Shown piece by piece: positions 12,214 through 50,646 of a stretch of DNA of 64,000 nt (its first letter is position 1; each line of letters starts with the position of its first letter). The stretch comes from Lingula anatina (taxonomy: Eukaryota > Animalia > Brachiopoda). The stretch is taken from assembly GCA_051362555.1 (NCBI GenBank), contig CM120649.1, positions 5,952,001-6,016,000 of the forward strand, in the 5' to 3' direction. The notes under the pieces are model-generated. The model was not told where the DNA came from, did not search any database, and worked only from the letters and a program-made list of their open reading frames with translations. Made by a program: the position numbers and the translations under genes.

Positions 12214-13555
12214 TCAGTCAGTCGTTTTAGGACATAAACAGCTACAGCAGCCAGCGGAAGGTTTCTTCGGAGGTGACGGATTCCCGCTGGGATTACCACC
12301 GGGATTTCTAGAAGATGGGGTGTCCGGTGACGATGCAGGACTTCCCGTGTCGCCCGTGGTCGCGGCGGTGTCGTCCGCGGGCGACCACCACCACAGCTTT
12401 ATTTCATTCGCCATAGCGCGTGTGATCCTGCACGCGGAGTTCTCTCTGTTGCCGCCGTACGCGTGAATACCGACCACTTTCCAGTTATATACATTCCAAG
12501 TCCATACCGGGCTACCGCTGTTCCCTGCGGTTGTGTCTGTGGTATAACCGAACATACGGGAAGACACGCCCTCCACCATCCCGCCACCAATCCACATCGT
12601 CGAGTCAGGTTTGTCGCCTGGGAAACCGCACACGTGCACAACGCGGCGACGGAATTCGGAATCCGAAAGAAATTCGGAGCCGAAGCCGTAACCGACATCC
12701 GACGGAATGGTAGCCCTTATACTGGAATCTTTGACGAAAATGGCGCCATAATCATCGTCGGGCAGCTCCTTCTCCACATAAGCTTGGCTTACGCGGAAGC
12801 TATCCTTTGAAACAGTGAACTGTCCGAAGGGAGCGCTTGCCCCGTCTCGTGCTGGTATCACAGTGACGCTTTTCATGTACCCGCCGTGTTTTCGAGAATA
12901 AAGATTGTGTCCGCATGTGAGAATCACGAACCTATACCCTGGACCTAAAATGTTACTGAAAAATCCAGTCCCTCGGAAATATTTTCCGTTGGCGGTTTGA
13001 ATATGTAAGTAGCACACCCAGCGGTATGGAGGTGATTTTGTAGGGCTAACTCTAAGGCGGTCATCGACCCCAATGACGTTCTCGGGAACCGGAGATGTCG
13101 GCGTGCTTGTTGAACTCGTAGAGCTCGTGGTGCGTGTTTTTTTCGCGCTGTCGATAGGTTTTAGGTTATTCACTTTCACCGTTTTGCTTCCGCCGAAATC
13201 AACTGTTACGTCATCTGTGACGTCAGCTGGCGGAGCGGGTCGAATGGTATTTGGATCTGGAAATATGACATAATTTTCATTCATTTTCAATCATTGTGCC
13301 TTAATTTTAAATAAGCTCTGACAAAATGTTTAGGAGAGAGAGAGAGAGAGAGAGAGAGATGTCAAAAAAAAAAAAAATACTACAAGCACATGTCCTATTA
13401 AAACGACCGTTCGTTTCTTCATGCAATTAACAGTGACAGCGTGAAATGGTGAAATGGAACCCCCCATTCTGCTATTTCCAACACATACCGTCATCCCGGT
13501 GAACCCAAGGGGTGCTCTCCGTCTCCTTTACATCCACTCGTATGTCTGACTCGGA
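12214..13555 (-). CDS. V8-like glutamyl endopeptidase (S1B-type serine protease) paralog A; exons 13489-13555 and 12214-13256; start codon upstream, not resolved
   Basis: Triad TCGH / DDYGA / GNSGSP; S1 His in VGIH; N-terminal motif E-NVIGVDDR..PYRW. Upstream exon SESDIRVDVKETESTPWVHRDD joins in frame via a phase-1 GT-AG intron. Pro/Ser-rich tail ends GCCSCLCPKTTD. Confidence 0.85.
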
Positions 13556-14278
13556 CTAAAAATTAAGAGTACATAATATTACTTGACAATGAGGATTGGC
13601 ATTTTGTCTTTATTTGCACTGTTAACAGCATTTTCATTTTTTTATATAAACAGTATATGTGTCACAGTGTGCTCAGTGTCTCGTTATTCAATTCATGTTT
13701 ACAATGTGCTGATAAAAAAGCTGCAAAACAAATAAACTGAAACAAATATACTCCACTTTATTGTTATATGGTCAACACTTGAGATAACAGACCTTACATT
13801 GTGAAATAGCTTTTTGTCGAGTACAAATGGAAGTAAAGAAAATGAAAAGTAAAGAGAAACGTCGTGCTCCTACAGGGAAAACAGATTTAGTTTCTTTAGC
13901 AATGATTTACTTTTTTTACCATAAATCCTTTATGTCAACATAACACTGTGTGCAATGTTGGCAGGACATATCTCGAGCACAATCGCTGTACATAGTGAAA
14001 AATTAGTAGCTGAAATATCATCTAACTACAAAAGGCAAAAATGCTTATATTGAGAGTTAAATCTTCCTATGCCTTAAAAGACTTATAATTAGTTAATCGT
14101 ACATGCGTTTATCATAGAACCGCAGCGACTACGAACTGAATAATATTCCTACGACAACTCCTACACGAGTCTTATCCCATAAACATGGGCAAGGCCCTGT
14201 ATTAATTCTTCTTTGATGTGACTCACACCCCTTTAGAGAACAGGGACAAACGTTTATCATCTTATCATCTTTCCTCGG

Positions 14279-14280
<2 letters not shown>

Positions 14281-14356
<76 letters not shown>

Positions 14357-14365
14357 GAGAGAGAT
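14281..14365. repeat. (GT)n(GA)n microsatellite
   Basis: Direct reading. Confidence 0.95.
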
Positions 14366-15423
14366 AGGTCGTCAACAAGCATTCCAGGGACCCTGAATAC
14401 TGACAAGAATTCTACTCTAGGCGTGACACATTTTAAGCATTTCAATAAGGTGGCGCCTTGGGTATACACTGGGAAAGAGAAGAGTTACCCTGAAGACCTC
14501 GTGATGCAGGCTGGCCTAAGTGGGTAGGATGCAATAGCATAGATACTATCTGTAACCTAAAGTATAGAAACTAACTAACAGAATTTAAGAAAGACGTTAT
14601 GCTTAAAAATCTTTTCAATATAATTTGTTAAAATACAGGCCAACTTTTCTCTATAATTTGCAACAAATTCCAAGAAGGTCGGTTCCCCAGCAGAAATACC
14701 CCTCCCCTGTAAAAATCTTCGGCTGAAAATAGACAATTCCAAATATAAATTAGGCCCGTTCATTTAGAAAAGGTCTTTGTCCTCTTTTTGTTTCCCTTTT
14801 TTCTTTACATTCGTAATTAGAACAGAATACATAAAATTCAGAACAAAGCTGTTATTTTATTTAAGTATATGCCTTATATTTCAAGAAATATGTTATAGGC
14901 TACGTTCGTCACATAACTCGCTTTAAGCTTTTTGAAGTGACCCCTGACTGTCGTTCTATGCATACAATAAGAACTGAAACGAGACTAGGGTTTGGATAAA
15001 AGGCCATGATATATATCAGATTTTTATGCTAAATGTAGTCAAAATATACAAGGAATGTGGTTAGTATAATATATCATTATAATGCAGTGTGTGGTTGTAC
15101 CTGCTCAAACGGCACTGAGCGTCTATTAGAGTAACATGCGATGCTCGTTCTTAAGCTTTAGGTACTCTCCGCCCACAGGTGGGTTGAGTTGACACGATTA
15201 CAATTGTCACATTTACATCAAGGAGTGGTGACAGAAAAAAATCCTCGAGCCACGTTCAAACTGGTTTGTGACCCCATACAATTTTTCCAGGGGCGTATGA
15301 TTATCTACAGAAAAATGGCGCTCATGACAAGCACGTCCTACATATACAATTGCACCCGGTGTAAACATATGGCACTATTTTTTTCTCTTTTGTTAGATAA
15401 CACTATATAGAATGATATCCCCT

Positions 15424-15490
15424 TCCCTCTGCCAGGGCTACAGATTGATTTTTCACTAGATATTCAAGATATGTCTCTGGTTAAATTCAC
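15424..15490 (+). repeat. Dispersed repeat terminus (also ~37780-37840 + and ~29318-29378 -)
   Basis: ctct(g/a)ccagggc(t/c)acagattgattttt.actagatattca..atatgtctct shared among three loci. Confidence 0.6.
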
Positions 15491-17640
15491 GGTTATTTTC
15501 TGTACTGCGATCGCGAAAATGTCCACAAAATAATAACTGCGGCCCTGGTGTAGGGTACCCCCTCCCCCCTTTCAGGAGACGCCCATGGCCAGGACCAATG
15601 CCCCTCCGGGCAAACCGTAGATACACCTATAACTATTTTGGGTCTATGGGTCAGTATACAATGTACAAGCAGATTAACGGAATTAAACTGACCACTGGTT
15701 TTAAAACATGAACCTGCAACCTGAAACGTGTCTTCCAGTTCACAGAGACCTCCCACTTGACCTCGGACTGTAAAACCTTGTTGACTGTATTCTGTTATCT
15801 TGCATTTTTTAAGCAATAACTCTGAAGTATAAAAGCCGTACAACTTTGTGACTCTCTCACTTTGTGTATGTGTGTGTGTGTGTGTGTGTGTGGGGGGGGG
15901 GGGTGTCTTGGTATCGGGCGTGAAAGAAAAACTGAAAGGCATGTTTCATAATGATGATATGGTGCCGATACTTCAAGCGTAATATGCCTATTCAAGCAGT
16001 TGTGATACAATATACGGTGTGAAAAAGATCTCTGTTTTTTTCAGTGGCATTTTATTTGATGCATTCGTGGTTTAAAAATGTCTCACTGGTTTCTTTTTCA
16101 GCACAGTGTTATTCCTGATGACCTAACGTCTTTGTGTAGAAATTAAAATACACGACTTGGAGAGAGAGAGGGGAGGGAGGGAGGGAGACAATTGATACTT
16201 GTAGGATAATAATAATTTTACTACAAACCATTTCTCCAAAAAGTCAGAGAGGAAGATTCAGGTACTAGATATTGTCACTTATCCAGATCAATCAGATTCA
16301 GGTACAGGAATGCCCAGTATGATGTGATAGGCAGGGGATCGTGTAATTTGCACAAAATAAAAAAAAGAAAAACGAAATAGACGACATAACACATTCTCAT
16401 AAAGATCAGAAAGTCTATAACACATAAATCTGGCACCAGTACTTGTGTACCTCTGACTGCATCATCATCCATCAAGAGTGAAAAGCAAGAACAGGTAAAC
16501 TACTGGCTTTACGCAGCCTAACTCGTCACCTTTAACTTCCGCGTCGTTAGAGCGCTTAAAAAATATATATCAGCGCTCCTACATGCATCGCGACACGAAT
16601 CCACTCAAGATTATAGGCGACACAGGACATTGCATTTAAAACGCTCGTAGCATGATGTTGGACGGCGTTCGGTTACCTGTAGTTCATGGGGTCAGTCACG
16701 GTGTGTATGTTGAAGTCGTCTTCTCTGCCTAGCCTTAAACGCTACGCTTATTTTGAATTTTTCATTCGGTTGCTTTGCGATCCCGATATCAATACAGATT
16801 ATTAGTACTGTAGATTAGTAGCATGCGAGTTGTATAAGAGAGAGAGAGAGAGAGAGAGAGCGGAGACAGGGGGGAGGTAGGGGCCTAATTGTAATTCTGA
16901 TGCAGTTGTGACTGAAACATATCCTTAATCCCGCTGTTAATAAGACTTATGCATAAGGCCATCATCATTTACCTGTCGGTGAGTTTAAGTCAAGTTGTAG
17001 TTTTATGCGTAACCACTCTTAAGTACGTTACTTTAGGTGTCAGCGCACCTGATTTACCTGAGTTTAGACTTTCACAAACACGGCCATATCAGCGTACCTT
17101 ACTACGACCCACCTGTGTGCCGCCTACATGCTTATACAGTGTACCTGTGGAATGTTCAATTTACCTGACATTAAAAGCATACTCACAGCCTCTTCCGTCA
17201 TAACTGCAGGGGTCGGGTGTCCTTGGCTAATTCAATCACCGGTGTCTGACTTCTAGAGCGTGTGTGTTATGATTTATTAGTTCACAATCATCGCAGGGGT
17301 AGAGGCGGCTGAGGGGTTCCGTGGCGCAACGGTGACACCTCTCAAAGCGCGCGATGACTGCACCAAACGCGGTCACGGTTGTTACTAGCCTTGACAGTGT
17401 ATTAAGCGGAAGTTAAGTGTATAATAGAATAACGGCGCATGCTCGTGTTGTTGACGCTTGACTGGATCTAAGGGTTTTATTTACATGCTATAGACTATTG
17501 ACGATTGGGGCATGTTTATTTAGCCTTGTTTAAGCGTCTCGCCTCTGAAGTACATAAACCGTGTAATAGAGAGTGCATTAATTTCTCTCTTCTTTAAATC
17601 ATTGGTGCTTTCAGTTTTTTTCTGTGAGTCGGGGTTAAGT

Positions 17641-17720: not shown

Positions 17721-18009
17721 ATGTCACCTTCTTAGGCTGATATACAGAAATGCTCATAACGTGGTCTAAAGACAAGCTCAGATATCAGTATAATAGCTAT
17801 CACTGCCGTTTTTATTTTTATATTTCTATGAGTTTTTCACAATGTTTTTATTGTGAAATATAGAAGAGTTATTATCCCTTTAATGTGACTGCAATTCAAG
17901 ATAAAAGTCGCATCGGCAGTTTTCTGTTGGTAAATTATCTTAACAGAATAGAGATAACTGAGAAATCACCAGGAGTATACATGTTATGAAATGATGAAGG
18001 AATGCAATC

Positions 18010-19384: not shown

Positions 19385-20827
19385 ATGGCAAGCCCTGTTA
19401 GACTGAAGTGTGTGTTTTTTAACATCTTGCTTGTCATTACTTGCTGGACCGCCGTCAACGTCCTCATTGTAAACTATGGTCTGTCCATGAAAGGCGTAGA
19501 TGACACATACAAGGAGAATTCTCCATCTGATAGATTAAATAATCTGGAATTAAGCATCGTCCGCCGTGAAGCCACCACAGATAATAAGGGAAGGGAAGGA
19601 AGATACCTACCTGCCACCAACCAAGTCAATTTAAAAACACTTATTCCTATGGCAAATCAAAATAAAGTAGACCTCATGCAGCACCTACAGAAAAAGAATT
19701 CGAGTATTACGCTGGATCGGGATTCAAGTGTCATCAATGTGGCGAGAAAACAGATCGGATCTCTGACCCAAAACAAGGTACTTCAGGTTAGGGAAAAGTC
19801 TATTCTGTTTTGGAACGGTTATCAGAATTTTTGCAAAGAAAAGTTCGGGCCTCCATTTCGTTCGTGCCCCATAAATGCTTGTTCTTTGACTGTGGATCGA
19901 AGACAGTCAAAAGCCGCTGATGCCATCATATTTAACCTAGCTGCTCAAGCGTTTAAAAATGAATGTCAGGGAGTGGAACCGAAATGTGAAATTCCAAATG
20001 TGAAACCCAGCCACCAGGTTTGGGTATTTTTCTCCATAGAGCCACCTTGTCAAACAAATGTATACGGCCATTTGAATAAAGAGGTGCTTCTTAATTCGTT
20101 TAACTGGACGTTTACTTACAGGATGGATTCAGATATATGGTCGCCTTATGGCATGATTATAAGACGTGACAAGCCTTTAAAACGAAACTTCTCCGAAAGT
20201 GTTAAATCTAAAACTAAGCTTGTCGCATGGGTTGTGAGTGATTGCGTCACTTGGAGCAGGAGAGAGGAGTACGTGGCAGAGCTGATGAAGTATATCGATG
20301 TCGATATTCTAGGCGAATGTGGAAGACTGTGTATATCTTGTTGGAGTTACGTGAACGCTACCTACAAATTCTACCTGGCCTTTGAAAACAGTTTTGCAGT
20401 GGACTACCTGACCGAGAAATTTTTCAGAACGTGGCACTTGGATGTCGTCCTGGTAACGAGAAGCGGTGCCAACTATTCACGGTTTGGCATAAGACCAGAA
20501 ATGCATATTGACACCTCAAATTTCTCATCACCTAAAGAGCTGGCGAATTACCTTCTTTTATTAGATAAGAACGACTCCCTGTATCTTCCGTACTTAGAGT
20601 GGAAAAACACCCACGTTTCAACCAAACCATTGGAATCCCGCTACATGAATTGGTGCGGTTTATGTGAAAAGGTGCACGAAGAGCCAAAAACGTCAAAAGT
20701 TTACACCAAACGAGAGCTTCTTGATTGGCAGTATGGATATGGAGAGATCAAAGGCTGTTACCATGCAACAGACATAGTTGGCCCGGCGCAAAACTGCACC
20801 AAGATTAATAAAAGAACATGTGTTTAA
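19385..20827 (+). CDS. Alpha-1,3-fucosyltransferase (GT10), type II Golgi membrane protein, single coding exon, 480 aa
   Basis: N-terminal TM segment and stem; ADAIIF, FNWTFTYRMDSDI..PYG, LVAWVVS.C; alpha-1,3-FucT motif YKFYLAFENSFAVDYLTEKF; terminal C.LC. Confidence 0.95.
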   Translation: MASPVRLKCVFFNILLVITCWTAVNVLIVNYGLSMKGVDDTYKENSPSDRLNNLELSIVRREATTDNKGREGRYLPATNQVNLKTLIPMANQNKVDLMQHLQKKNSSITLDRDSSVINVARKQIGSLTQNKVLQVREKSILFWNGYQNFCKEKFGPPFRSCPINACSLTVDRRQSKAADAIIFNLAAQAFKNECQGVEPKCEIPNVKPSHQVWVFFSIEPPCQTNVYGHLNKEVLLNSFNWTFTYRMDSDIWSPYGMIIRRDKPLKRNFSESVKSKTKLVAWVVSDCVTWSRREEYVAELMKYIDVDILGECGRLCISCWSYVNATYKFYLAFENSFAVDYLTEKFFRTWHLDVVLVTRSGANYSRFGIRPEMHIDTSNFSSPKELANYLLLLDKNDSLYLPYLEWKNTHVSTKPLESRYMNWCGLCEKVHEEPKTSKVYTKRELLDWQYGYGEIKGCYHATDIVGPAQNCTKINKRTCV

Positions 20828-25584: not shown

Positions 25585-28086
25585 TTAAACAGTCGTCTCC
25601 TTTTTGGCACGTGTTGGTTTAAAACGCGCGTCCGTTGCATCTGTGGATAGCGGCGTCGCAAGCACCGCTGGTAAGGGATTTTCCTTCGGAGCACTCTCTG
25701 CTGACAAAGCCCCCAAGCGGGAAATCTCACGTGACCACTTAAATACGTCATTGAGTACCTCCTTGTTGATTCGCCTGGCAGAGTTGTATGTACCACGCCC
25801 GTAACCATGGATACCTATGACGACCCAGTCTTGGTAGTACCAAGTCCAGACGGGACTTCCGCTCTGGCCGCCTGCTGTATCGGTGTCGTAATCGAACATC
25901 CGGTCACGTGCCCTAGATATCCTTCCGCCCCCTATCCACAGCGTTCCGTCGGATTTGTCACCCGGATAACCACAGATGTTAACCACTCTATTCTGGAGGG
26001 CTTCATCGGGGAGAAGATTGTACCCAAAGCCGTAGGAATCCCTTGGCAATGCTGCCCGGACTCTGTTTGTATCACTTACAAATATGGCGCCATAGTCATG
26101 CACGGAAGCGTCTCTACCTAAAAAAGGAACAATACCATGTACACACGGACTGACATAAAGCCATCACTGATGTGTAGTTTGACTCATACGGGAATACTTC
26201 TAACGAATGTGTTGTGTATGTCTTGTGTTAAGTCATCAAAGTAATTTCATTTGTAGACTACAGTTCATCAATACAGCAGATTTTTTAAAATAATCATTAC
26301 TTCCTGAAGTAATATTCCTCATATAAAGATCACTGGCCCGGAAGCTAGATGGGTACACTGTAAAGTGCCCGTATGGTAGCTGCCACGTGTCTCGGCCGGG
26401 GTACACCTTCACTTTCTGCACATACGCTCCTTTGATGAAAAAACAGTACCAAAATTTTATTTTACGACAAAATCAAAAATTGATTTACCTTGGAAAGATG
26501 TAATGAAACAGCAATGGATAGAAATTTTATCCAGATACGTGTACTAGCATTTGACATGTATTCTGACTTCTTACAATTTACAATCTGTATGCAATGCTGA
26601 AAAATACACCTTAATCGCACAAGTGATATTTTCATAATATATTTTTTCACTTTACTAACAAATTCGATCGCATTTTAAGCTCATTAAAAATATGAAATAA
26701 ACAATTATTCTTTTACGTCTTACTTACAACAAATACTTTCGAACTATGTAACAATATATAGAGATGCGTCCTTTTTTCAAAACTCAACGCACCTTCAATG
26801 AATAAGTTGTGTGCGCATGTCAGGATGACCAGGTCACGTGATGTCCCCCGCAGAGCTGTACAAAAGAAGCCGGTGCCCTTGTAGCGATCATTGCCAGCGT
26901 AAATCTCAAGGTAGCAAATCCACTTGTAAGGTGGTGAGGTACAGGGAGAGACGCGGAGGCGTTCGTCTGCCATCACGACATGCTCCATCTCGGGCGGTCG
27001 TCTGAATTTGTAAAAACAATGTTGTTTATACAACACAGGCCTAATTTCAAAGTGACTTATCATCCTAGAAATAACTTTTATTGGTAGAACAAGACCTGGT
27101 ATATATGATATACATGTATATACTTGATAGTGTTATTCAAAATTGATTTATTCGGGCCGTTATCAAAGAGATAAGAAAGACTTAAGACACCATAATCCTA
27201 AGGAAAGGTAGTTGTAATACCACTATATTCCTCATATTATAGTGATTATACAGTTTATTTATGCATGCGTTAGATTAAGTTGAGGGTTAGTTTTATATTC
27301 GGATTATCCTCCAGTTTTAATTTTTCCCAAACAAGAATAAGATAAAATGCACATGAAACGTTTATCCCGGATGTTCCCAGCCTCGATGCTTTAGATATTT
27401 CAATATAAATATTTTTTAATTAAAACTAAGTTGATAAAAGCCATAAACTCTTGTTTGTTATCTGTTGCCGATGAAAACTGACCCCCCAATTTTATCTAAC
27501 GCATGCATAAATAAAATCATTATGATACTCACATGACTTCAATGTCTTCTAGGATCAACGGTGACTCTTTCAGGTTCTTCACGGCTTTCTGTTTCTTGGG
27601 ACCAAAACTGACCTCCACATCGTCCACGTCACTGGCGGCCTGCATTGACCTCGGCTCCTCGGAACTTTGATCTTTTGGGAAAATAAATGCCATAAATTAA
27701 CAATATAATGCTATAATGCTAAGGGTTTTCAACGTAAAAATCAAGCGTCAAAATGAAATGATAATGCTGATTTTTTTCAAAGTAAAATCCAATACCATTC
27801 ACTTAATACATGGACAAAGTTCAGACATCTCGATTACAATGGCGACACCAGAGATGCATTTCAACTTGAATTAAAATAACTTTCTTTCAGTTTTGTTCAT
27901 AGATTGATGAAATAAGTCTACACGTAATTTTCAGCACCATTTTTAAGCAGGACCAAAATCTCTATATATCTAGCGTTTCCCACATTCTTGTTTACACTGA
28001 TCATATTTTTTTATTATGAGTTCGGTATATGTCCATTCATACACACCCGACGTCATGTTGTCTTCATTTTTCTCTTTGTCCTTCAT
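25585..28086 (-). CDS. V8-like glutamyl endopeptidase paralog B; exons 28047-28086, 27533-27671, 26793-27001, 26301-26429, 25585-26117
   Basis: All four introns are GT-AG and keep frame: MKDKEKNEDNMTS|DQSS..DDVEVSFG..EVI|RPPEME-HVVMADERLRVSP..TCAHNLFIE|GAYVQKVKVYPGRD..TSG|SRDASVHDYGAI..GYPGDK..DTAGGQSGSPVW..IGIH. First exon is less certain. Confidence 0.85.
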
Positions 28087-33188: not shown

Positions 33189-33929
33189 TGTGCACGTCTT
33201 GTTTAGGAGGATCTGAAAGGAAGACTTGGGACATTAGACAGATGGCGGGGCATAATATTAAGTTGTACAAGCTAAGATATGCAAATGCAGATAAATAAAA
33301 AAATGCATTATTAAACATGTAAAGAGAGAGAGAGGGAGAGAGATGAAACGTGCACTGACGTCTTTACCAAAACGTGAAATCACGAGGTTTTCAGATCCCC
33401 ACTTTCAAACCGCAAGACATATATTTCTGACATAAGGAAGTTACCACATTTTGATAACAACATAATACTGGCAACCTCAGTATAAACAGGGTTTTGATGA
33501 CCGCTTTATACAGGCTCAATGCCAACCATGGAACAAGATGATTAATCATGTCTTAAAAGTCTGCCAATTTTTCGCCCACTGCCTCGGTAAACAGCTGCAA
33601 AATAATGCTTACGTGACTTCAAAGGATTCGCATGATATCCATCCAATAACAAGTAATGTTAAAGAACATGTTTTATGCTGCAGCATTAAGAGCAATCTCC
33701 CTGGCAACCGCCATTAGATAAAATGTACTGCGTTAATTAGGTTTAACATGCCCCTTTTCATTACCACATGAAGAATACATTGGTGGCACTTTTGTTTATC
33801 GCTAAGCTATGGATGTCTGCTTGAAAAAATTACATTAGGAAAGCGTATCCTTTGTGGTCCATCCACTCTGCCGGTTTCTGGCTAAAATTTAAACAGTGAA
33901 CACCACTCTTATTGATTATCCGGTTACTC

Positions 33930-34149
33930 TAAGACCCCATTCCCAGAGATTAGATCGATCCAAACTAGATCGACCTTACTCCCTGGAGGTGCACGCTAAA
34001 TAGCTGTCAGCCAAGCGGGCACGAAAGTTAATTACCCCCTTACAGCTTGCAGTAGGCGGGACGGACATTTAAGCCGGATTATCTGACAGTAATCTAGTGA
34101 GACTCCCCACGGGGATAGATCGATCTAAATGTCTGGGAATACGCCCTAA
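33930..34149. mobile_element. ~220-bp MITE family copy
   Basis: Matches the 18010 and 59431 copies; TIR cattcccaga.attagatcgatc. Confidence 0.8.
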
Positions 34150-34179
34150 CTACAACAACGACACAATGAACATGTACGT

Positions 34180-34244
<65 letters not shown>

Positions 34245-34953
34245 ATGCCAATGTAACTCTCTACTAGTCTGCCGCCATCCCTTCCCTCAACTACGAATAC
34301 CCTGTTTAAACCCATAAATTTCATTTAATAAGTCTCAGTTTGTGAAATAAATACAGAAAATAGTTTTATTCACCTCAGGCTCGTTCCACTTAGCCCTGTT
34401 TAGTACATAATTCGTACGGACTGTGACACAAAGCAACAGGGGGGAGGGGGTCTGCCACTTCCGCCAGTTGACAATAAATTAAAGAAGAACAGAGTGAGCC
34501 GTTAACACCTCACACATGGCTGACACCGTAATTAATAGCACTGTACCAGTGTCGGCCCTCTGACACCTGTTGTGCAGGCCAGATGGTTTACTACTCCTTC
34601 CAGGTGCGAGTGTTTTGGAGGTATCGATCCCCGGTCAGGTTGTGACAGGATCGTACCAAACATCAACGTAAAAACCTAACCCCCCCCCCTCCACACACAC
34701 ACATACTATTACGCACACACGTTCGGGCCTCACTGCAACACGAAGCAGAGTAGGCCTAATACCTAAAACTGCGGTCAGATCTAGGACCCACTAGGTCAAA
34801 GGCAATTAATGTATCTTATATAATGACCATATTGTGCGACCTTGCGTGCATTCTGTTAAATTATTCCTATTGCCTTACCGACAGGACACCTCATATGAAA
34901 AAATACTGAGTTATTAGGCCTACTTATTTAAGATGCACTGGGATTAGGACACG

Positions 34954-35035
34954 ACTCACCTTTTACATTCAAACAGAGATGTGAGTCCAGTAGGCCGGAA
35001 GATCCCAGGCACAGTACAATGGGCTATATAGACCT
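34954..35035 (-). promoter_or_regulatory. Candidate TATA box and 5'UTR exon of protease C
   Basis: Minus-strand TATATAG at ~35024-35030 followed ~65 nt later by an AAG|GTGAGT donor. Confidence 0.35.
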
Positions 35036-35473
35036 TGGCGCACCTATAAGAGCCTCTCGATATTAATCTGTCCTATCTTCAAATATATTCCACTTCCCCC
35101 AACATTGTCCGTTTATGTCACATACCACTCAATACTGAAAATGTTAATTAACCTCATTTTCAATACTTAAACAGTATATCAATGGCTTTAACAATAGTCT
35201 GATAACGAGATCATTGACTGGAGAGTGACCCTGAATGCGCATAAGGTATGCAACATGGCGCCTCGCAGTAATATCACGCTATATGCTTCTCTGATTTTGA
35301 ATTAATGTATATAATGACATTTGAGAATGCATGAACTTCATGCGATATAATCAATATACACGACAATTAAAAGACAAAGTCATAGCGCGATGAAAATTGC
35401 TGATGACGACCAGGTAAATACTAGTATGGCCATCATACTTGTACATAGCCTTACATGGTACCTGCCAAAGTAC

Positions 35474-35718
35474 TAGGGGCCATTCCCAGACTAACTGTGG
35501 ATCGATCTATTTCCGAGCAGATTTTAGTTAAATTGCAATCAGCAGCTTAGATGTCTGTCACGTCTACTGAAGCTGCTAGAGGTAATTAATTATCGTTTGG
35601 CATCTTCAGTGGGCGCGCCAGACATCTAAACCGCTTAAGCTGAAAGCAAATTAGCGAGAAACCCCCCGGAGATGGATCGATCCTGTTAGATCGATCTAGG
35701 TATGGGAATCCAGTCTAA
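35474..35718. mobile_element. Diverged ~220-bp MITE family copy
   Basis: cattcccaga...gatcgatc ... gatcgatctaggtatgggaatccagtcta. Confidence 0.6.
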
Positions 35719-37953
35719 GTAATTGAGTGCCACAGGTAATTAAATGTAATAAGCCAAATTGGCATTAAGCGTAAGTTTATGTCTGTAGCTTAGTTAAAGA
35801 TAGACGAGGTATATGAGTATTGCCAGAATTATAATAGTGGTAGCTAAATTGGTCTTTGACAGGGCGAGATAAGGGCGGGGAGGGGGTGTGCTTGTTTCTC
35901 TTTTTTAATCCTTTGACTCCTGACCGGACATACTTTATGAATAGTTGACGTTTTTTTTTCATTTGTTGAGTGGAAAAATATGTGATCTTTGTTAAAGAAT
36001 GGGATTAAAATTAGAAAAATGAAATTTAATGGCATGGAGTGAAAAAGAATAAATTGACGGATGTGAACTAAAATAAAATAAACAGAAAATTATGAAATAC
36101 GACAATCGATTTGCTTGTAATTAACAAACAAAAGCGTTTTGGTTATTTATCAGCATTATTTTACTTAAATACGCAATGTTTCACGTAATTTATCTAATCG
36201 GTTGCTTGAAAATATTACCAGAACGAGCATAGGGACATCCTAATGGCAGCAAAACCAAAACAAATTTGGCAAACGTGATTTATACGAATGAATAAAAAAT
36301 GCTGAAAAGATGGAGTCGACAAAGGGCGATCAATATCGTTTTATTTAGACGGAGTGTGTCGCGTCAATAATTTGCCCCAAATGTATTTTCCGATGTTACT
36401 TATGTAAATACAGTATATGCAAGTGTCTAGATCTACTGATACATGCACCAACCCCAAATCAGCGGCCTTGGATCTTTTTTCTATTTGGATAATTCACTCT
36501 GTATATGTGCACTGTGAGTGTGAAACTGATCGGTTATTTAACACGAACGACCTGATAGCAAGGGGCCGACAAACCATAGGAACAGGTTGCCCTCACTATA
36601 CAGTGAACTATAAAAAGATTGCTTTCAACAACGTTAGACCGACCTAAAAATAACAATGCACAATGAATTGTGTCAGAAATTTTCTAGTGGGCCGCCCCAA
36701 AAAATAACGCTTGCCAGATTCTCCAGTTGGGGTATGCTCAGTTGTGAATACCATTGTGTACGCCGGAGATGAAGCTATGCACACTCCATTTACTGCCTGC
36801 AAAAAAGATTTCGCATTGTATCACGATCATTATTATCAAAGATCAGTAATGGCGCCCGTATTAATGACGTGCTTAACACGTTTAACTGTCAAAGTGACCC
36901 CAGGTCAATTAAAAAAAATTACAGTTAAGGTGGAACCAGTGATTTTTTTAAACGTCAAGGATTATACATTTGTGAATTTTGGAGAAGCTGCAATTTAAAA
37001 ATTGTAAATATAATATAGGGTGTGCATTAAAAGCTCTAATAATCTGGGGAATGTGGGAACGAACAATTTAACATTAAATAATTATCTTCACTAAAATTTT
37101 AAGCTAAATCCTTTACCCTTTATTAGTAATGTGACTATATCCATTTTATATGCACTGATGCCATGTATGATCTTTAATTATAAGTTTTCTATATTATTTA
37201 GTTGAATAAATCGGAAGATCAAAGTTGTAATTTTGTTCCACGCTCATAAATACCTAATCCCGCAAAGGGTATAAATAGTCTTCCAGACCAACCTCAACCT
37301 TAAAGAATTAATGAAACGGGGGTGGCGGAAACCACCAAATAAATCGGAAATTTCTTTTTCGTCATCCTGTAAACAAAATCAGTGGCTATTGTTGTGACAG
37401 GACCCTTCCCTTTCTCTCCGTCCCTGCCCAGGATCCAATCCAGCCCCGTTCATTCAATGGTAGTGAACCGTGACGTCGCCACCCATCGTATTTGATTTCA
37501 CTGATTTTATCCTACCTGATCGGTCAAGTCTTCTGTATTTTTATCCATTTTGATACACATTCCCCCGTACCTTTACATTATCTACATGTACATGTAAGTT
37601 ATTAATACGGCATATAATATGAATTGAGTGGGTTCGCCCGGGAATCACTCATGCATGCGAGTATTTCCTCCGGCTGCAACGAATGGCTTTGTGAGAACAA
37701 ATCTGATTTGGAGAGATAGAGAGCGTAATGTATGTGTGAGAGAGAATGCAGAGACGAGTGCATAAGTTTGTGTGTGTATCCTCTACCAGGGCCACAGATT
37801 GATTTTTTTACTAGATATTCACAAATATGTCTCTTGTTAATCGATGGCACATTTCTGCACTCACGCTAGAATCCAAAATCCTAGACTCACTTTGAGAAAA
37901 GTGTCTATTATTATCTGCGGCTGGTAGAGGGTAATGTGTGTGTGTGTGTGTGC

Positions 37954-37999
<46 letters not shown>

Positions 38000-40449
38000 C
38001 AGATACATAATATGACTGCAAAGAATCCACCGACAAGAACTTATTCAAACCCATAGAATATTACAGATATAAATATAAAAACATCAATACAGGACAATAT
38101 GTACATCCATCTTACCTGTGTCGGAATAGAGCCAATTCAATTATCAGATATCCCTCTTGATAATAAGACAACCTTTTCTTCTTTTTTGTACGGATTGTCC
38201 TAAAAAGTCGGAGAGTAAATTCCTTTGCTTGGTCTTCTCCACCGTGTTATAAAACCACGTCGGTCCCACGCAAGTTCAGATATAGCTCAGGCTAAATTTA
38301 GCAGCAGACGACACTCGTGTTATGATAATGGGGCTATGGGAACGCTTGAAGCAACACGTTAATGACTGTCAACCGAAAGAGGTGACCCTCCATTTAAACG
38401 CACTGACAGGAATGAATGAGTCACCCTACGACACCTTTTGAGAATATCGTCTGCCAACTAGTACACTCCGCTCTCCGAGTAAGGTCTCGATTTCATGGCA
38501 TAAGAATTGCGCTCGTATGTTTGGGAACGAGGCAATAGAGTGGAAAGAGTCTTCGTGTACACCGGTTCACGTATTACGTAGATAGGTGTGATATATCTGC
38601 TCATTTTCTTTTATCCGCCTATATAAATGAGATTAATGGACTGACTTTGTAAAAGGGACGCATGCTAGGTGATTAACTAAGCATTAGCGGAATAATGCCG
38701 TAAATAATGATGCTAAAATAGTGTTTGGACTGACATCCCCTTGCTAAGGTTAAGGTCCAAGAAAAGTGCCGTACAGTAGAAGACGCACTTCCAGCTTGCC
38801 TTGTTTGGCAAACGTTTCTTTTTGTGACGTAAAATGACACACCTTGCAGGCAAGAAGTGCCGGAATGTGTCCTTTGTACAGGGTACATTTGTTGTCATTG
38901 ATGATAATTTTATACATAAGTGATACTGAGATAAAATAAAAATGAAGTCAATTTTTATCGTTAACGCGACTTTTTTTTTTTTTTGCATCACAATTAGGCA
39001 AGGTGTTTTATTGCTGACAGTAACTTTGTTATATTCTATCTTTGAAACGTCATATACGTTAAGAGAAAAAAATAGAAAAAAAAAAAAAAAAACATCGAAT
39101 TCGGTGGGATCACTCGCACACATGTAACGTTGTGGGATATATAGTAATTCACTCTGAAAAAAAAAGCATTCCAGTACATTACTTAAAGTCATAATAACTC
39201 TTCGTTTTGGCCAAAAATTGGATTTTCCTGGAAAAAACGGCAATTTTCCCGTACTTACCAATGGCCAACGACCCCATTCCTGCATTCAAAGTTAATCCAG
39301 GGTTTTTTTCCTAAACGTACGGTTTTTTGTTAAAATCTCTTAAGAGATTTTAACTGACGGAGCTCTCTCTGACACTGCAAAGTCACTGGTGACCTACTTA
39401 AAACCGCGGGAAAAGCAGACAACAACAACACTATATAAGATTCATGAGATATATTCGTCTTTTTGTTAAAAAATGCATTTATATCCACAATGTGTGCCAT
39501 TCTGGGCTTTTCGTTATCCGACGCACTGTACAAAAACTCGCAACTTACGTCTGAGGGTTTCCCGCCATGTTATTTTGGTCTCGTAGAACGCGAGAATCCG
39601 CGTGACACCATTACGTCATTAGCAACGAATGCACTTGTCGACCGGAAAAAAAGGGATTGAAAGCCCTATTGACAAGCACAGATTTTAGTTTTCCTACAAT
39701 AACGGCCGTTTTAGTGGTAAAATACAATAGAATATATTTCCATGCGTTGTTTACAATGTATTTCATGCGGATTTTTGAATCTCAAAGGAAGAGTTATTAT
39801 TGCTTTAAGAATGACAAAATAAGGTTAAACTAACTTTAGGATCTGAATTAAAAAGTACGATCAAACGGAAATAATTCGCTTTTTATTTGTTTGAAGATAA
39901 AAGATTATCCGCTCAAACAAACGCATAAGTTTGCAGTACAGCTCACCTGCATTGTAAATAATCATATAATAATGGTGGTAAAAAGGCTGTGCTCCAGACG
40001 TGTCTAAAAAAATCAGAAATATAAAGCTACCTAAAATATCCTTATTGAAACCTCGGCTTGGAAATTACATCACGCATAAAACAATATATTCTAAAGGATT
40101 TCAGATTTAATTTTCCAAGAAATGTTGACCTTTAGCTGATATTCTGACGTCATGGTGAGCACACCTCGTGTCATGCCATGACAGGCCTTGTTAATGAAAT
40201 GACGTTCCTCTTTCTTCCTAAAACAATGACAAATATCAGGTATCACTGATGTATTGCGAAACTTGTTTTTTTTCTCATTTTGACTCTTCTGAAATGATTC
40301 TCGACTCAGAAATTAATTGCGTTAACCCTTTCTTCAACGCCCCTCAGCCTCCACTCTTACACACACGCGCGCGCACGCATGCACGCACGTATACGCTCTC
40401 TCTCTCTCTAACACACTCACACACACTAAAATAACATAAAAAAAACAAC

Positions 40450-42830: not shown

Positions 42831-44057
42831 TTAGCCAACAGGGTTCATAACTCTGCCCATAAACAGAACAGTGCCCGATGACTTCTCGCGAATCAGGAAG
42901 ACGAAGGGTCGGTCAGCTCGAAAGACGGGAGTCACTGAAATCATTGACCTGAAAGCCACGCCTATAGCTGTGGCAGCCGCCGCCTCGGTTCCTTCTTCGT
43001 TGACGTCAACGAAAGCCTCGTGGATCGCCTTGGAGACGAACAGATCTCCTGGTTTCCCGCCAATTCTCGACAAATCAGCGCCGCCTAAGTTGAACATCTT
43101 CGACATTCCCATTTGAATAAGCACGGGCTTCAGATCTAAGCGCATGTCGCTCAGCTTAAACTTAGGTAGGTACACATTGACTGTCTGGTTCCACATTGTT
43201 GACAATGCGTCATCCACAACCGATGCGCTGGTCAGTGATCTTTCCAGATGACCAAGGTCATCAATTTGGTCAGGGAGGAAGACGACCATACTAGCGTCAC
43301 CATGGTAAGGTAGTTCCAAAATTTTGCATTTCAGCGAGCGACTGATTCCATACGGGAATTTCTGCTTTTGGAACATCATTGGCACGTTCACCTGGTTCAC
43401 GTTGGATGTGAAGAAGGGTTGGGGACGGGTGCTCGACTCCGCAAACTTACTGGTCCAAGTTCCCTTAAAATATATGGCGTTCACCAGGATTAGGATGAGC
43501 TGCGGATCGATGAAGTTATTTGGCAGGAGGTCGACTATCTTGTTATTTGTCTGCTGTTCTACCCAATTGTTGATGTACCTGGTTGTGTCGGAAGGTTGGC
43601 TAAAGTCCTGTAGATCTAGGGGAGCATCATAGTACCGTCCACTGTCATCAATGTACTTTTGATTGAAGTTAAATCCTTCTCTTCCAAAGAGTCGATTGGC
43701 AATACGGAGGAGATATTCGGTACCTGGGTTGGTTAGTCTGGTGCGGAGGAGTTTGAAATTTGTATGGATGGAAGGGATATTGCTGTAACCCATCACTCCT
43801 TTCATCTCTGATCTAGTGTCACCTTTAGCGCCGAGAAGGACCATGCTTAAAGCAGTCGTGATGCTGAATGGACTGAAGAAAAGGTTACCGGAATCGGCCT
43901 TGAGAATCTGGTACAGCTTTAGGGCGAAGTTGGTATTACTGGCAACAATAAGTTGTTCAGTTTGGGTGGCATCCTGGCCTAGTATGTCCAGAGACCAGTT
44001 GCTTATGACCACCAGCAAACAGGCAAGAAAAACTGCTGACCTGACTAATGGATGCAT
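42831..44057 (-). CDS. Secreted serpin 1, predicted P1-P1' Arg-Ser
   Basis: Hydrophobic signal peptide, FFSPFSI, NAIYFKGTW, hinge EEGTEAAAAT, RCL AIGVAFR-SMIS, FRADRPF. ATG at 44057 (the ORF track starts at an upstream GTG). Confidence 0.96.
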   Translation of the reverse strand: MHPLVRSAVFLACLLVVISNWSLDILGQDATQTEQLIVASNTNFALKLYQILKADSGNLFFSPFSITTALSMVLLGAKGDTRSEMKGVMGYSNIPSIHTNFKLLRTRLTNPGTEYLLRIANRLFGREGFNFNQKYIDDSGRYYDAPLDLQDFSQPSDTTRYINNWVEQQTNNKIVDLLPNNFIDPQLILILVNAIYFKGTWTSKFAESSTRPQPFFTSNVNQVNVPMMFQKQKFPYGISRSLKCKILELPYHGDASMVVFLPDQIDDLGHLERSLTSASVVDDALSTMWNQTVNVYLPKFKLSDMRLDLKPVLIQMGMSKMFNLGGADLSRIGGKPGDLFVSKAIHEAFVDVNEEGTEAAAATAIGVAFRSMISVTPVFRADRPFVFLIREKSSGTVLFMGRVMNPVG

Positions 44058-46107: not shown

Positions 46108-47331
46108 TTAGGCAAGAGGGTTCATAACTCTGCCTGTAAACAGTACGGTACCCGATGTCTTCTCGCGAATCAAGAAAACGAAGGGCCGGTCAGCTCGGAA
46201 GTCAGGAACAATTGAAATCGACTCAAAAGCCACGCCAATGGCCGTAGCAGCCGCTGCCTCGGTTCCTTCTTCGTTGACGTCAACGAAAGCCTCGTGGATC
46301 GCCTTGGAGACGAACAGATCTCCTGGTTTCCCGCCAATTCTCGACAAATCAGCGCCGCCTAAGTTGAACATCTTCGACATTCCCATTTGAATAAGAACGT
46401 GCTTCAGATCTAAGCGCATATCGCTCAGCTTAAACTTAGGTAGGTACACATTGACTGTCTGGTTCCACAATGAGGAGATTGCGTCATCCACAACTGATGC
46501 GGTGGTCAGCGATCTTTCCAGATGACCAAGGTCATCAATTTGGTCTGGGAGGAAGATGACCATACTAGCGTCACCATGGTAAGGTAGTTCCAAAATTTTG
46601 CATTTAAGCGAGGCACTGGTACCATACGGGAAACTTTGTTGTTGAAACATCATTGGCACGTTCACCTGGTTCAGGTTGGATGTGAAGAACGGTTGGGGAC
46701 GGGTGCTCGACTCCGCAAACTTACTGGTCCAAGTTCCCTTAAAATATATGGCGTTCACCATGATTAAGATGAGCTGGGGGTCGATGAAGTTATTTGGCAG
46801 GAAGTCGACGATCTTGTTATTTGTCTGCTGTTCTACCCAATTGTTGATGTACCTGGTTGTGTCGGAAGGTTGGCTAAAGTCCTGTAGATCTAGAGGAGCA
46901 TCATAGTACCGTCCACTGTCATCAATGTACTTTTGATTGAAGTTAAATCCTTCTCTTCCAAAAAGCCGATTGGCAATACGGAGGAGGTATTCTTTTCCTG
47001 GGTTTGTCAATCTGGTGCGGAGGCGTTTAAAATTTTGATGAATAGAAGGAATATTGCTGTAACCCATCACTCTTTTCATCTCTGATCTAGTGCCACCTTT
47101 AGTGCCGAGAAGGACCATGCCTAAAGCAGTTGTGATGCTGAACGGACTGAAAAATATGTTACCGGAATCGGACTTGAGAATCTGGTAGAGCTTTAGGGCG
47201 AAGTTGGTGTTACCGGCAACGATCTGTCTTTCAATTTGGGTGGCATCCTGACCTAGTGTATCCAGGGACAAGTTGCCTATGACCACCAGCAAATAGGCAT
47301 GAAAAACTGCTGACCTGACTAAAGGATGCAT
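46108..47331 (-). CDS. Secreted serpin 2, predicted P1-P1' Glu-Ser
   Basis: Same scaffold; RCL AIGVAFE-SISI; ATG at 47331 by homology (upstream ORF extension is intronic). Confidence 0.96.
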   Translation of the reverse strand: MHPLVRSAVFHAYLLVVIGNLSLDTLGQDATQIERQIVAGNTNFALKLYQILKSDSGNIFFSPFSITTALGMVLLGTKGGTRSEMKRVMGYSNIPSIHQNFKRLRTRLTNPGKEYLLRIANRLFGREGFNFNQKYIDDSGRYYDAPLDLQDFSQPSDTTRYINNWVEQQTNNKIVDFLPNNFIDPQLILIMVNAIYFKGTWTSKFAESSTRPQPFFTSNLNQVNVPMMFQQQSFPYGTSASLKCKILELPYHGDASMVIFLPDQIDDLGHLERSLTTASVVDDAISSLWNQTVNVYLPKFKLSDMRLDLKHVLIQMGMSKMFNLGGADLSRIGGKPGDLFVSKAIHEAFVDVNEEGTEAAAATAIGVAFESISIVPDFRADRPFVFLIREKTSGTVLFTGRVMNPLA

Positions 47332-49407
47332 GATCACCCGACGAATTTTGTCTGAAACATACCAAATAAACATACCAAATAATTTCATCAATACATTCTC
47401 ATATTGAATACACATGTATATACGTAGAAAAAGACAGATACCCGCATACTTATACAATACAGTAAATAAAAGAAAGCCACACCAAAAGATATATATGCTC
47501 AGAGAGTATAGAGCAAACCTACCTTTGAATCACAAAGAGACCTTAATAGCAGTTGTAACTGGGACACATGTACAGGGTGATGTGGCTCTTTACACACACT
47601 TATGAGCGTAGTCAAAACTGGATACTAGAGTAAAAGCTGTTTCCTCTTAATTTGTTACCCGTCATCCAATCCGATTTGCGTTCATTTATTTACGATAGGG
47701 CTCTGTTTTTTTAACCCCGGTTCCATTAACCCCGTGTTTAACGTAGTAGTTTTTTGGTGTGGTTTATATGGCCAGTAGGCACTTAATCACAATCCAATAT
47801 ATGTGTTTAAATAAAAGGCGCCTATAAATTCAGCTCCCAGTTGAGTACATGTATGCAGGCGCATTCAACTTGGAGACATATGAGAGTCCAGTGTTTGGGT
47901 GGGGGTGGGTGGGGGTGGGGGGGGGTTGCATTGTAGACATAATATGTTTCCTAAAAGAAAAGTTACTACCGATAAAAACAGCAGTGGGATCGACCATTAA
48001 CATCACGACTAGAGTACAAATATGAGGCAGTCACGTCACCAGCTGTCTCACGAGCGGACAGTACCAGGCACGTCCTCTTACTTAATCTCCGGTTGCAGGA
48101 CAAATCGTGATAGGGTATGCCCTTACAGGGGTATATATATTTTTTGTTTTTGGTTTTTATGGAGAACTGTGGAATTGTGTTGAGTGCTGTGGTTATCCTA
48201 ACATCCTTTTTAGATGAACTGAAACAAATTGATAGGTACCAGTATGTAAAAAATAATAAGAAGAAAGTCAATATTTTTGTTTTCCTTTTCCTACGGAAAA
48301 GTTATTTGAGCATTTGTCAAAGTTTTCAAGAGGCAAACTTGTTTTCTTTTTGTATCTCAGCTTCTATGAAGAGAGGGACTCTATTAAAAACTCGGATAGC
48401 TGTATCCAGGGTAAAGGCCAGTGAAGTCTGTTTAAAATCAGTATGAATGAGTCAAAGGACGCCAGTATTTATAAGTTAAAGGTTTTTAATCAAAAGTTCA
48501 ATGATTACTGTTCCAAACATCATTTTTTTGTCATTTACTGGGAAATCGTGTATATTTCAGTGGAAATATTTTTGACGCTGTAATTTAAGATAAATTGGAA
48601 TCATCCAAGACAGTCCTTAATCTCTTGAATTCACGAAAAACAAGCGAAGATTTCGTGATTCAGTTGTGTGGGGCCTGAAAAATGTCAGAGGATTACACGT
48701 AGTGATGCGCTTGAGCGAATAAAAACTGACAGAATTCATTTACTTATGTATTTTGGCTGTTTCCTCTTTAGTTCTGCCAAATAGCAGTCTACTTCACAGT
48801 AAGTGTGTCAGTTTTGTATTAGCTTTTACGATTACATTTCCTGCAAAATAATTTCTCTCTTATCACCTAAAAGATAACCCCAATTCAAACATTTTCTAGC
48901 AGTCTTTCAAGTCTTCTAGTAGTACGTATGACGGCATGCGCACTGCCATATCAGCTTCTTTTCAAGCTATCTCGGTTTATGCCTATTAAACTGACTATTT
49001 ATTCAAATTGACCGCATTTCCAGAGTAAACAATGCTTTTGTTATTAAAATTCTGTTTATGCTAAACGTTGGTATATAACTAACTGTTTTAGTGTCACAAC
49101 AAGTTCGGTTGTCTGGAAAAATATTATATCCCCATCATGCAGATAAATCAATTAAATCATGTCAATTTATGCAAGAAGTAATTTTATTTCTTATTTCATT
49201 TCAAATGCCAAAAAATTCTATTCAAGTCAACGAGAAATTATGTATTTGTTCAAAAGATTTACATATACTGTTGACAATGCAGTTTATGGAGCATACGTTG
49301 GTATACATACATGCATACATTTTTAATATATTACAACTGACGAAAAAGTTTATTGTAGACAGGAAAAAAGAATGTCTTTATTTTGTTTCCAGTCCGTACG
49401 CGTCATT

Positions 49408-50646
49408 TTAAGCAAGAGGGTTCATAACTCTGCCCATAAACAGTACGGTGCCCGATGTCTTCTCACGAATCAAGAAAACGAAGGGCCGGTCAGCTCGGAA
49501 GTCAGGAACGACTGAAACCGACTCGAAAGCCACGCCAATGGCCGTAGCAGCCGCCGCCTCGGTTCCTTCCTCGTTGACGTCAACAAAAGCCTCGTGGATG
49601 GCCTTGGAGACGAACAGATCTCCACGATTTCCGCCAATTCCTGACAAATCAGCCTCGCGTACTCTGAACATCTTCGACATTCCCATTTGAATAAGAACGA
49701 GTTTTAAATCCAACCGCATGTCGCTCAGCTTAAACTTAGGCAGGTACACGTTGACTGTCTGGTCCCACAACGAAGAGATTGCATCATCCACAACTGATTC
49801 GCTGGTCAGTGATCTTTCCAGATGACCAAGGTCATCAATTTGTTCTGGGAGGAAGATGACCATACTAGCGTCACCATGGTAGGGCAGTTCCAGAATTTGG
49901 CAATTCAGCGAGAGACTGGTTCCATATGGGAAGCTCTGGCGTTGAAACATCATTGGCACATTCACCCGATTAAAGCTGGATGTAAAGAATGGTTGGGGAC
50001 GGGTGCTCGACTCCGCAAACTTACTGGTCCAAGTTCCCTTAAAATATATGGCGTTCACCAGGATTAAGATGAGCTGGGGGTCGATGAAGTTATTTGGCAG
50101 GAGGTCGACAATCTTGTTATTTGTCTGCTGTTCTACCCAGTTGTTGATGTACCTGGTTGTGGCAGAAGTCTGTCTAAAGTCCCGTAGGTCTAGAGGAGCA
50201 TCATAGTACCGTCCACTGTCATTAATGTACTTTTGATTGAAGTCAAATCCTTCTCTTCCAAAGAGCCGATTGGCAATACGGAGGAGGTATTCGTTACGTG
50301 GATTGGTTAGTCTTGTGCGGAGGCGTTTGAAATGTTCATGAATGGAAGGGATATTGCTGTAACCCATCACTCTTTCCATCTCTGATCTAGTGCCACCTTT
50401 AGCGCCGAGAAGAACCATGCTTAAAGCAGTCGTGATGCTGAATGGACTGAAGAAAAGGTTACCGGAATCGGCCTTTAGAATCTGGTACAGCTTGAGAGCG
50501 AAGTTGGTGTTACTGGCAACAATCTGTTGCTCAGTTTTGGTGCCACCCTGCGTCAGCGTAGCTTCACCAAGTGTGTTCAAAGACCAGTGACCTATGACCA
50601 CCGGCAAATAGATAAGAAGAACCGCTGGTCTGATCGATGGGTGCAT
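49408..50646 (-). CDS. Secreted serpin 3, predicted P1-P1' Glu-Ser
   Basis: RCL AIGVAFE-SVSV; intact hinge and signal peptide. Confidence 0.96.
   Translation of the reverse strand: MHPSIRPAVLLIYLPVVIGHWSLNTLGEATLTQGGTKTEQQIVASNTNFALKLYQILKADSGNLFFSPFSITTALSMVLLGAKGGTRSEMERVMGYSNIPSIHEHFKRLRTRLTNPRNEYLLRIANRLFGREGFDFNQKYINDSGRYYDAPLDLRDFRQTSATTRYINNWVEQQTNNKIVDLLPNNFIDPQLILILVNAIYFKGTWTSKFAESSTRPQPFFTSSFNRVNVPMMFQRQSFPYGTSLSLNCQILELPYHGDASMVIFLPEQIDDLGHLERSLTSESVVDDAISSLWDQTVNVYLPKFKLSDMRLDLKLVLIQMGMSKMFRVREADLSGIGGNRGDLFVSKAIHEAFVDVNEEGTEAAAATAIGVAFESVSVVPDFRADRPFVFLIREKTSGTVLFMGRVMNPLA

Follow-up and report, generated by a model that had tools for sequence, protein, structure and literature searches.

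The window analyzed here, 64,000 nucleotides of Lingula anatina contig CM120649.1 (assembly GCA_051362555.1; all coordinates are window positions), carries on its minus strand three genes for proteases resembling the V8-type glutamyl endopeptidases and, close by, an array of six serpin genes, two of which encode a Glu at the bait position P1. The original prediction had joined the two sets into a linked enzyme-inhibitor pair or, as a second option, had the serpins aimed at microbial V8-type proteases. The linked pair is unsupported, since the predicted compartments and the RNA depth of the two sets differ; with a probability of about 0.65, they are two separate neighboring clusters that probably form no working pair, and serpins aimed at V8-type proteases from outside are the likelier of the two options.

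Several observations argue for neighbors rather than partners: the compartments indicated by hydropathy differ, with the N-termini of proteases 1 and 3 backed by RNA; serpins 1-3 are close to zero where the proteases are highest; the Glu bait arose once in the array; and other Lingula protease loci lie on other scaffolds, a fucosyltransferase gene sits inside the protease cluster, and no prokaryotic locus among 80 had a serpin.

Linkage, Expression and Compartment

The gene inventory is based on open reading frame (ORF) calls and a Pfam scan. Three minus-strand protease genes with the T..G[NQ]SGSP and GIH-type S1 motifs are present, as originally described: protease 1 (12214..17201; 374 amino acids; RefSeq LOC106153303), protease 2 (25585..28086; 349 amino acids; RefSeq LOC106153307; a homology model) and protease 3 (31322..38500; 360 amino acids; RefSeq LOC106153305 / LOC106154449). 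The distance to the serpins, first given as about 10 kilobases (kb), had to be corrected: because protease 3, by its RNA joints, begins with a non-coding exon that extends from 38116 upward (its upper end is approximate), the real gap from this exon to the stop codon of serpin 1 is about 4.3-4.7 kb. Proteases and serpins are thus physically linked on the same strand; the serpin nearest to the proteases bears Arg rather than Glu, and the array runs on past 50646 with three further serpins that carry other residues than Glu.

Five of nine RNA runs were mapped (1,262-1,770 million letters read each), four of them (X1, X2, X4 and X7) over the stretch of protease 3 and serpins 1-3. Protease 3 stands at 19-32x in X1 and X2, with serpins 1-3 at 0-0.7x; in X7 it is found at 3-6x and these serpins at 69-203x. 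In X4 both sets are low except serpin 1 (protease 3 1-2x, serpin 1 20x, serpin 2 near 1x, serpin 3 2.5-4x). Proteases 1 and 2 reach 22-38x and 8x, respectively, in X1, are about 0 in X4 (protease 1 0-0.45x) and lie at 2-10x in X7 and X9. The depths of the proteases move together across runs, and the serpins do not follow; co-expression, which the original prediction had proposed as a check, was not found, with protease but no serpin in two of the four runs and serpin far above protease in another. This pattern lowers the probability of pairing and goes no further, as a secreted inhibitor may be made elsewhere.

Over the best N-terminal stretch of 11 residues, hydropathy is -0.17, 0.15 and 0.18 in the proteases and 2.42-3.71 in the serpins, all six of which start with a hydrophobic leader; by the same measure, no hydrophobic N-terminus or transmembrane-like stretch was found in the full-length models of the three proteases. 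The earlier caveat that the serpins have signal peptides and the proteases apparently do not is firmer with these full-length models. Judged from their sequences, the serpins are likely secreted and the proteases likely act inside the cell, so that hydropathy does not place the two in the same compartment. The C-termini of the proteases are also of note: protease 1 ends in a string of Cys (four in the window, three in RefSeq and in the reads of run X1), and protease 2 in -ETTV, which is the same in P0036 and is matched by -ETIL in the Owenia protein. Going by consensus signals, the Cys string would presumably direct lipidation and -ETTV PDZ binding, and both would face the cytosol. At 12233-12234, a two-base polymorphism changes the last Cys of the protease 1 tail to Asn in RefSeq and in RNA reads. 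Taken together, the predicted compartments and the RNA depth largely give the picture of non-overlapping compartment or tissue that the original prediction had named as speaking against itself.

Other facts weigh against two unconnected clusters. Proteases and serpins are indeed closely linked (about 4.5 kb), and RefSeq places a copy of protease 3 on the serpin scaffold as well (168,701 bases, consecutive accessions), although that assembly is maybe not independent. Run X7 expresses both proteases and serpins, its reads and those of X9 differing from the window at many sites, so that cross-mapping of paralogues inflates serpin depth there; the five RNA runs are of unspecified tissue, and signal peptides were assessed by hydropathy. 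The leaders of serpins 2 and 3 are the weakest of the six (2.42 and 2.90, a His or Pro lying inside), and these two proteins may be partially retained in the cytosol. Finally, a P1-Glu beside Glu-type proteases is a coincidence that the reading as two clusters must accept, and P1-Glu is uncommon among serpins.

These same points feed the best surviving alternative, a cognate module in which the Glu-bait serpins inhibit the neighboring proteases, either outside the cell after lysis or unconventional release, or in the cytosol by way of their weak leaders. The spacing on one strand, the fit of a Glu bait to the predicted Glu preference of the proteases, the weak leaders of precisely serpins 2 and 3, and the presence of both sets in X7 all favor it, and an inhibitor that is secreted can come from other cells than its target. 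They are set against serpin reads near zero in X1 and X2, where the proteases are highest, the Arg of the nearest serpin, the single origin of Glu, its absence from four of the six serpins, and the protease paralogues on other scaffolds; moreover, V8 itself cleaves human serpins instead of being trapped by them, none of which is described as a P1-Glu serpin in the passages of PMC8054439 on this subject. Such a module is unlikely.

The Serpin Array

All six serpins are encoded by intronless ORFs that match the Pfam Serpin profile (PF00079) with E<1e-117 from profile position 1 or 2 to 370, and they are mutually 81-90% identical. P1, obtained by counting 17 residues from the hinge Glu, is Arg in serpin 1 (42831..44057), which has an intron in its 5' untranslated region (44239-44078, a joint in run X4). 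It is Glu in serpin 2 (46108..47331) and serpin 3 (49408..50646), with GAG codons at 46222-46224 and 49522-49524, exactly as originally reported. Gly, Lys and Thr follow in serpin 4 (52890..54116), serpin 5 (57327..58571) and serpin 6 (62070..63302), respectively; the loop of serpin 6 is shorter on the prime side, and its Thr is the less sure assignment. P1' is Ser in all six, and small residues at P12-P9, with a 17-residue loop to P1, correspond to an inhibitory hinge. Applied to two solved conserpin loops, the same count gives Met and Arg, the Met being the P1 of antitrypsin.

The bait loop changes much faster than the rest of the protein. Five different P1 residues occur among the six serpins, and RefSeq Lingula loops add Gly and Thr at P1; the ratio of nonsynonymous to synonymous differences (pN/pS) is 1.28 in the bait loop, a value from few sites, vs 0.21 in the body (10 pairs, serpin 2 excluded). 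Five Lingula serpin clusters match serpin 2 at 82-90%, and serpin 3 is 96% identical to RefSeq XP_013384245, which also has Glu.

Serpin 2 is a recombinant: it is serpin-1-like from upstream of the gene as far as the hinge, and its bait loop and 3' flank are serpin-3-like, with a breakpoint at about 46246-46270. Informative sites (serpin-1-like:serpin-3-like) pass from 185:37 to 11:155 at the hinge, and none of 500 permutations was as extreme; an unequal crossover would give this pattern. It follows from the recombination between serpins 1 and 3 that the Glu bait arose once. Two independent gains of Glu are ruled out by the same event. Serpins 2 and 3 differ at several 3' sites, which speaks against a simple duplicate from assembly. 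When a crossover falls at the hinge, a whole bait loop passes with the 3' flank onto the front end of another gene, which is a direct route to new specificity. The expression of serpin 2 itself is weakly shown, at about 1x in X4 and with a depth in X7 that may be cross-mapped. In RefSeq, distinct copies of the serpins are entered as isoforms of a single gene (P0028, P0024, P0025); P0028, which combines the front of serpin 2 with the loop of serpin 1, is likely a merged annotation, and none of the RefSeq proteins listed was the Glu-bait serpin 2.

In serpins 1, 2 and 3, the position before the Arg or Glu (P2) is Phe, which favors a second alternative, namely that Glu is not the working bait: the loops of serpins 2 and 3 could be cut at Phe by chymotrypsin-like enzymes, or these proteins could be weak inhibitors or substrates, with Glu a side effect of the rapid change of the loop. 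Iripin-4, a P1-Glu serpin of ticks, points the same way, as it is only a weak inhibitor of granzyme B and serves elastase as a substrate, according to passages of PMC10167670. On the other side stand the agreement of the 17-residue count with both solved loops, the Ser at P1' throughout the array, and the retention of Glu in serpin 2, serpin 3 and the RefSeq allele of serpin 3 despite other changes, which together leave an idle Glu a quite improbable explanation.

The Proteases: Gene Models and Specificity

The three protease genes are integrated animal genes, with introns, animal neighbors and expression. Protease 1 has coding exons at 17201-17187, 13555-13489 and 13256-12214, its GT-AG joints (13256/13489 and 13555/17187) being present in three of four RNA runs, and is 99% identical to RefSeq LOC106153303 (P0001). 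Protease 3 has four exons, confirmed by three GT-AG joints in RNA, with an in-frame stop 5' of the ATG; the non-coding first exon, from 38116 upward, is followed by coding exons at 33212-33044 (ATG at 33188), 32598-32310 and 31970-31322, and the product is 99% identical to P0030 and identical in sequence to P0176 (RefSeq). For protease 2, the homology model comprises five exons (28086-28047, 27671-27533, 27001-26793, 26429-26301 and 26117-25585) and four GT-AG introns, and gives a sequence identical to RefSeq P0177; its introns rest on this model and RefSeq, RNA joints being displayed for proteases 1 and 3. Bacterial contamination or mis-assembly is ruled out by the GT-AG introns in RNA reads and by the RefSeq Lingula models, and hidden 5' exons coding for a signal peptide by RNA joints for proteases 1 and 3, and by RefSeq agreement only for protease 2.

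Alignment reveals the catalytic triad His57-Asp102-Ser195 in all three proteases, along with Thr190, His213 and Gly216 of the S1 pocket; residues 190-195 read TTAGNS, TAGGQS and TAKGQS, and residues 213-216 HAYG, HGYG and HLKG, in proteases 1, 2 and 3, respectively. Pfam Trypsin_2 matches each of them, above the curated cut-off for protease 1 (a fragment) and full-length protease 2 and below it for protease 3; an NCBIfam scan of the three matched no family. The ten matches of protease 1 in a PDB sequence search are all bacterial, and nine of them are V8 or other glutamyl endopeptidases. The structure model, which covers protease 1 only, has a predicted local distance difference test (pLDDT) score of 84.8, and its best PDB match is BIGEP (1p3c; template modeling (TM) score 0.77), with V8 next. 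Motifs, sequence matches and fold thus bear out the V8-type assignment of the original prediction. None of the three is a secreted pre-pro-enzyme of the V8/BIGEP type; since they have no signal peptide, they are classed as a variant that would work like these enzymes and not as strict members of the group.

The predicted mature N-terminus is in register with Val1 of BIGEP 1p3c, in a part of the model (residues 1-4) where pLDDT is under 50. The first mature residues are predicted to be Asn, His and Ser, not Val, and a Glu directly precedes them in each protease; in protease 1, the codon of this Glu(-1), located by alignment to 1p3c, is at 13081..13083 on the minus strand, before Asn. Glu occupies this column in 135 of 166 homologous domains, and the triad with Thr190 and His213 is found in 161 of them.

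The earlier statement that the His/Thr pair gives Glu specificity was too strong: according to passages of PMC5508998, enzymes specific for Gln have His213 as well as those specific for Glu, and the charge is sensed not by this residue but, in the V8/BIGEP group, by the free N-terminal amino group. A Glu preference of the three Lingula enzymes is nevertheless likely, because of Gly216, the register of the N-terminus and Glu(-1). According to the same parts of PMC5508998, an enzyme with Glu before its mature start can self-activate; the Glu(-1) of all three proteases and of most homologous domains suggests self-cleavage after Glu, and self-activation at this residue is likely. A third alternative is that the proteases are not Glu-specific, but Gln-preferring or broader, which would remove the basis of the match with the serpins. 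The shared His213 (PMC5508998, from section 7) would allow this, as would the N-terminal residues, given that substitutions of Val lowered V8 activity 3- to 200-fold in passages of that source, and the low pLDDT of the first four residues of the protease 1 model. This alternative is very unlikely: in sequence as in fold, the best matches are enzymes proven to be glutamyl endopeptidases, the N-terminal register and Gly216 suit the V8/BIGEP group, and Glu(-1) is so widely kept.

Relatives and Origin of the Proteases

A profile search retrieved 18,357 relatives at E<=0.001, of which 150 were listed and ten looked up by record; these ten include further Lingula loci, a protein of Owenia fusiformis and one JGI protein. 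Lingula has two more protease loci, which lie on other scaffolds (of 670,120 and 212,496 bases). In a tree of 40 rows, five Lingula, one Owenia and four further proteins form one branch (support 99/96), and after addition of 24 named prokaryotic loci a branch (85/96) still sets the named animal rows apart, and one very long row is drawn among them. Both trees are unrooted or midpoint-rooted, and contain neither canonical trypsin rows nor rows of the animal PRSS23/35 type; the animal sequences have a branch of their own, and with midpoint rooting no donor phylum is identifiable. An old transfer from bacteria is plausible from these sequences. A recent Lingula-specific transfer is ruled out by the Owenia member within the clade and by branch lengths of 0.4-0.8 changes per column in it.

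The other named relatives, among those identified, are all prokaryotic, with up to 41% identity. Of 243 prokaryotic loci found, 80 were examined: a signal-like N-terminus from the first ATG occurs in one of the 80, and no serpin was present within up to 5 kb in any. Directly 3' of the V8-like gene, a small ORF is repeatedly present in the prokaryotic loci (in 20 and 12 of the 80; examples are L076:5660-6034 and L022:5831-6265, with weak carboxypeptidase-regulatory-like or DUF5666 matches) and is possibly a partner protein, although no bearing on the Lingula locus was seen. Beside the animal branch, a second, itself well-supported branch of seven V8-like proteins (P0003, P0146, P0163, P0179-P0182) is placed with weak support; its members share a conserved N-terminal region, which had no Pfam match in the two members scanned, and one member has a signal-like start. 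A structure atlas contains a cluster of similar folds with 62 members, mostly eukaryotic and rich in cnidarians.

The Lingula and Owenia proteins apparently make up an undescribed animal clade of likely cytosolic, self-activating glutamyl endopeptidases, as far as their sequences tell; that they represent a new animal family of cytosolic Glu-proteases has somewhat better than even odds. No further animal species was found by a word-index search, which is insensitive and missed known members such as P0066. Titles and starts of abstracts, with subscription papers outside the search, yielded no paper dealing with the Lingula genes or with V8-like proteases of animals; Lingula, Owenia and proteases are not mentioned in the main text of the metazoan horizontal gene transfer compendium PMC13342648, and in the passages of PMC8195603 that name it, Lingula appears only for TRADD-N domains.

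Proposed Mode of Action

The proteases would be made as cytosolic zymogens with a polar pro-part of 70-125 residues. Cleavage behind Glu(-1), which the enzyme or one of its paralogues would probably carry out, would free the N-terminal amino group, and this group would then complete the S1 pocket in the manner of V8 and BIGEP; protease 1 with its Cys string and protease 2 with its PDZ-type tail may thereby be held at the inner face of the membrane. The serpins, as predicted from sequence, would be suicide inhibitors in body fluid or mucus, whose bait residue diversified in the tandem array and reached Glu once; the Glu-bait serpin would most likely meet acid-specific proteases from outside, such as microbial V8-type enzymes.

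A bolder combination can be imagined, in which a self-activating cytosolic Glu-protease switch of bacterial derivation operates while tethered at the cell cortex of lophotrochozoans, and the linked Lingula Glu-bait serpin neutralizes the enzymes when cells burst. This is a long shot; if true, it would provide the first serpin in nature with V8-type glutamyl endopeptidases as its dedicated targets, and an analogue of the granzyme-B/SERPINB9 system built from unrelated parts.

Other Features of the Window

A single-exon GT10 alpha-1,3-fucosyltransferase gene (19385..20827, plus strand; ORF, Pfam PF00852 and PF17039) sits on the opposite strand between proteases 1 and 2, and is outside the proposed protease-serpin module; its RNA depth is mostly in one bin, in runs X7 and X9. 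Tandem repeats are found at 439-1308, 1832-2329 and 23074-23789, with periods of 337, 161 and 351. Short repeats at 17760-18350, 22400-23050, 29950-30360, 33950-34150, 39180-39800 and 50830-51050 have heavy RNA depth on two strands, with loose ends and strand-switch joints; these six stretches are likely dispersed inverted-repeat elements transcribed from many copies.

Comparison with Known Systems

Physical linkage itself probably matters little. The lasting interest of the locus apparently lies, on sequence grounds, in an animal family of V8-type proteases and in a likely secreted P1-Glu serpin within a bait-diversifying array. Few chymotrypsin-fold enzymes are known to be cytosolic in animals, and with an intron-bearing, expressed, signal-less family, animal cell biology would gain an intracellular protease directed at Glu.

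BIGEP and S. aureus V8, of peptidase family S1B, have in common with the Lingula proteases the chymotrypsin fold (TM 0.77 for 1p3c), the triad, Thr190, His213 and Gly216, and a pro-part, which in the Lingula enzymes is predicted to end where the mature protein starts in register with Val1. The Lingula enzymes, at about 25% identity, differ by their spliceosomal introns, the lack of a signal peptide and the Cys string or PDZ-type tail at the C-terminus; moreover, V8 and BIGEP need another protease for activation (PMC5508998, from section 8), whereas the Lingula Glu(-1) points to self-activation. Signal-less V8-like peptidases of Hymenobacter, cyanobacteria, actinobacteria, Methanosarcina and others share the Lingula motifs at up to 41% identity, but the animal sequences are on their own branch (99/96; 85/96). 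As stated in 2017 in section 3 of PMC5508998, characterized glutamyl endopeptidases came only from Gram-positive bacteria and (+)RNA viruses; elsewhere in its passages what part the N-terminal amino group plays for Glu specificity is called unresolved. The natural Asn, His and Ser N-termini would be a test of how this group sets Glu specificity.

SERPINB9 is a cytosolic inhibitory serpin with P1-Glu, and its target, granzyme B, is an Asp-preferring granule protease. Lingula serpins 2 and 3 share the P1-Glu, but have leaders and belong to a young tandem array. Tandem serpin arrays with hypervariable reactive loops are known from rodent, insect and plant clusters; like the Lingula array, they combine a conserved body, a fast-changing bait loop and recombination between copies, whereas in Lingula a crossover at the hinge has put a whole bait loop on the promoter and body of another gene. 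A precedent for P1-Glu in an invertebrate serpin family is the salivary Iripin-4 of the tick Ixodes ricinus, whose paralogues bear Arg, Tyr or Met; it is aimed at host enzymes and is weak on granzyme B, and the passages of PMC10167670 containing the term P1 include no assay of Iripin-4 against a glutamyl endopeptidase. V8, for its part, cuts several human serpins, at sites beyond the loop or on its margin (passages of PMC8054439); since it cleaves these serpins, a serpin able to trap enzymes of the V8 type would make a useful reagent.

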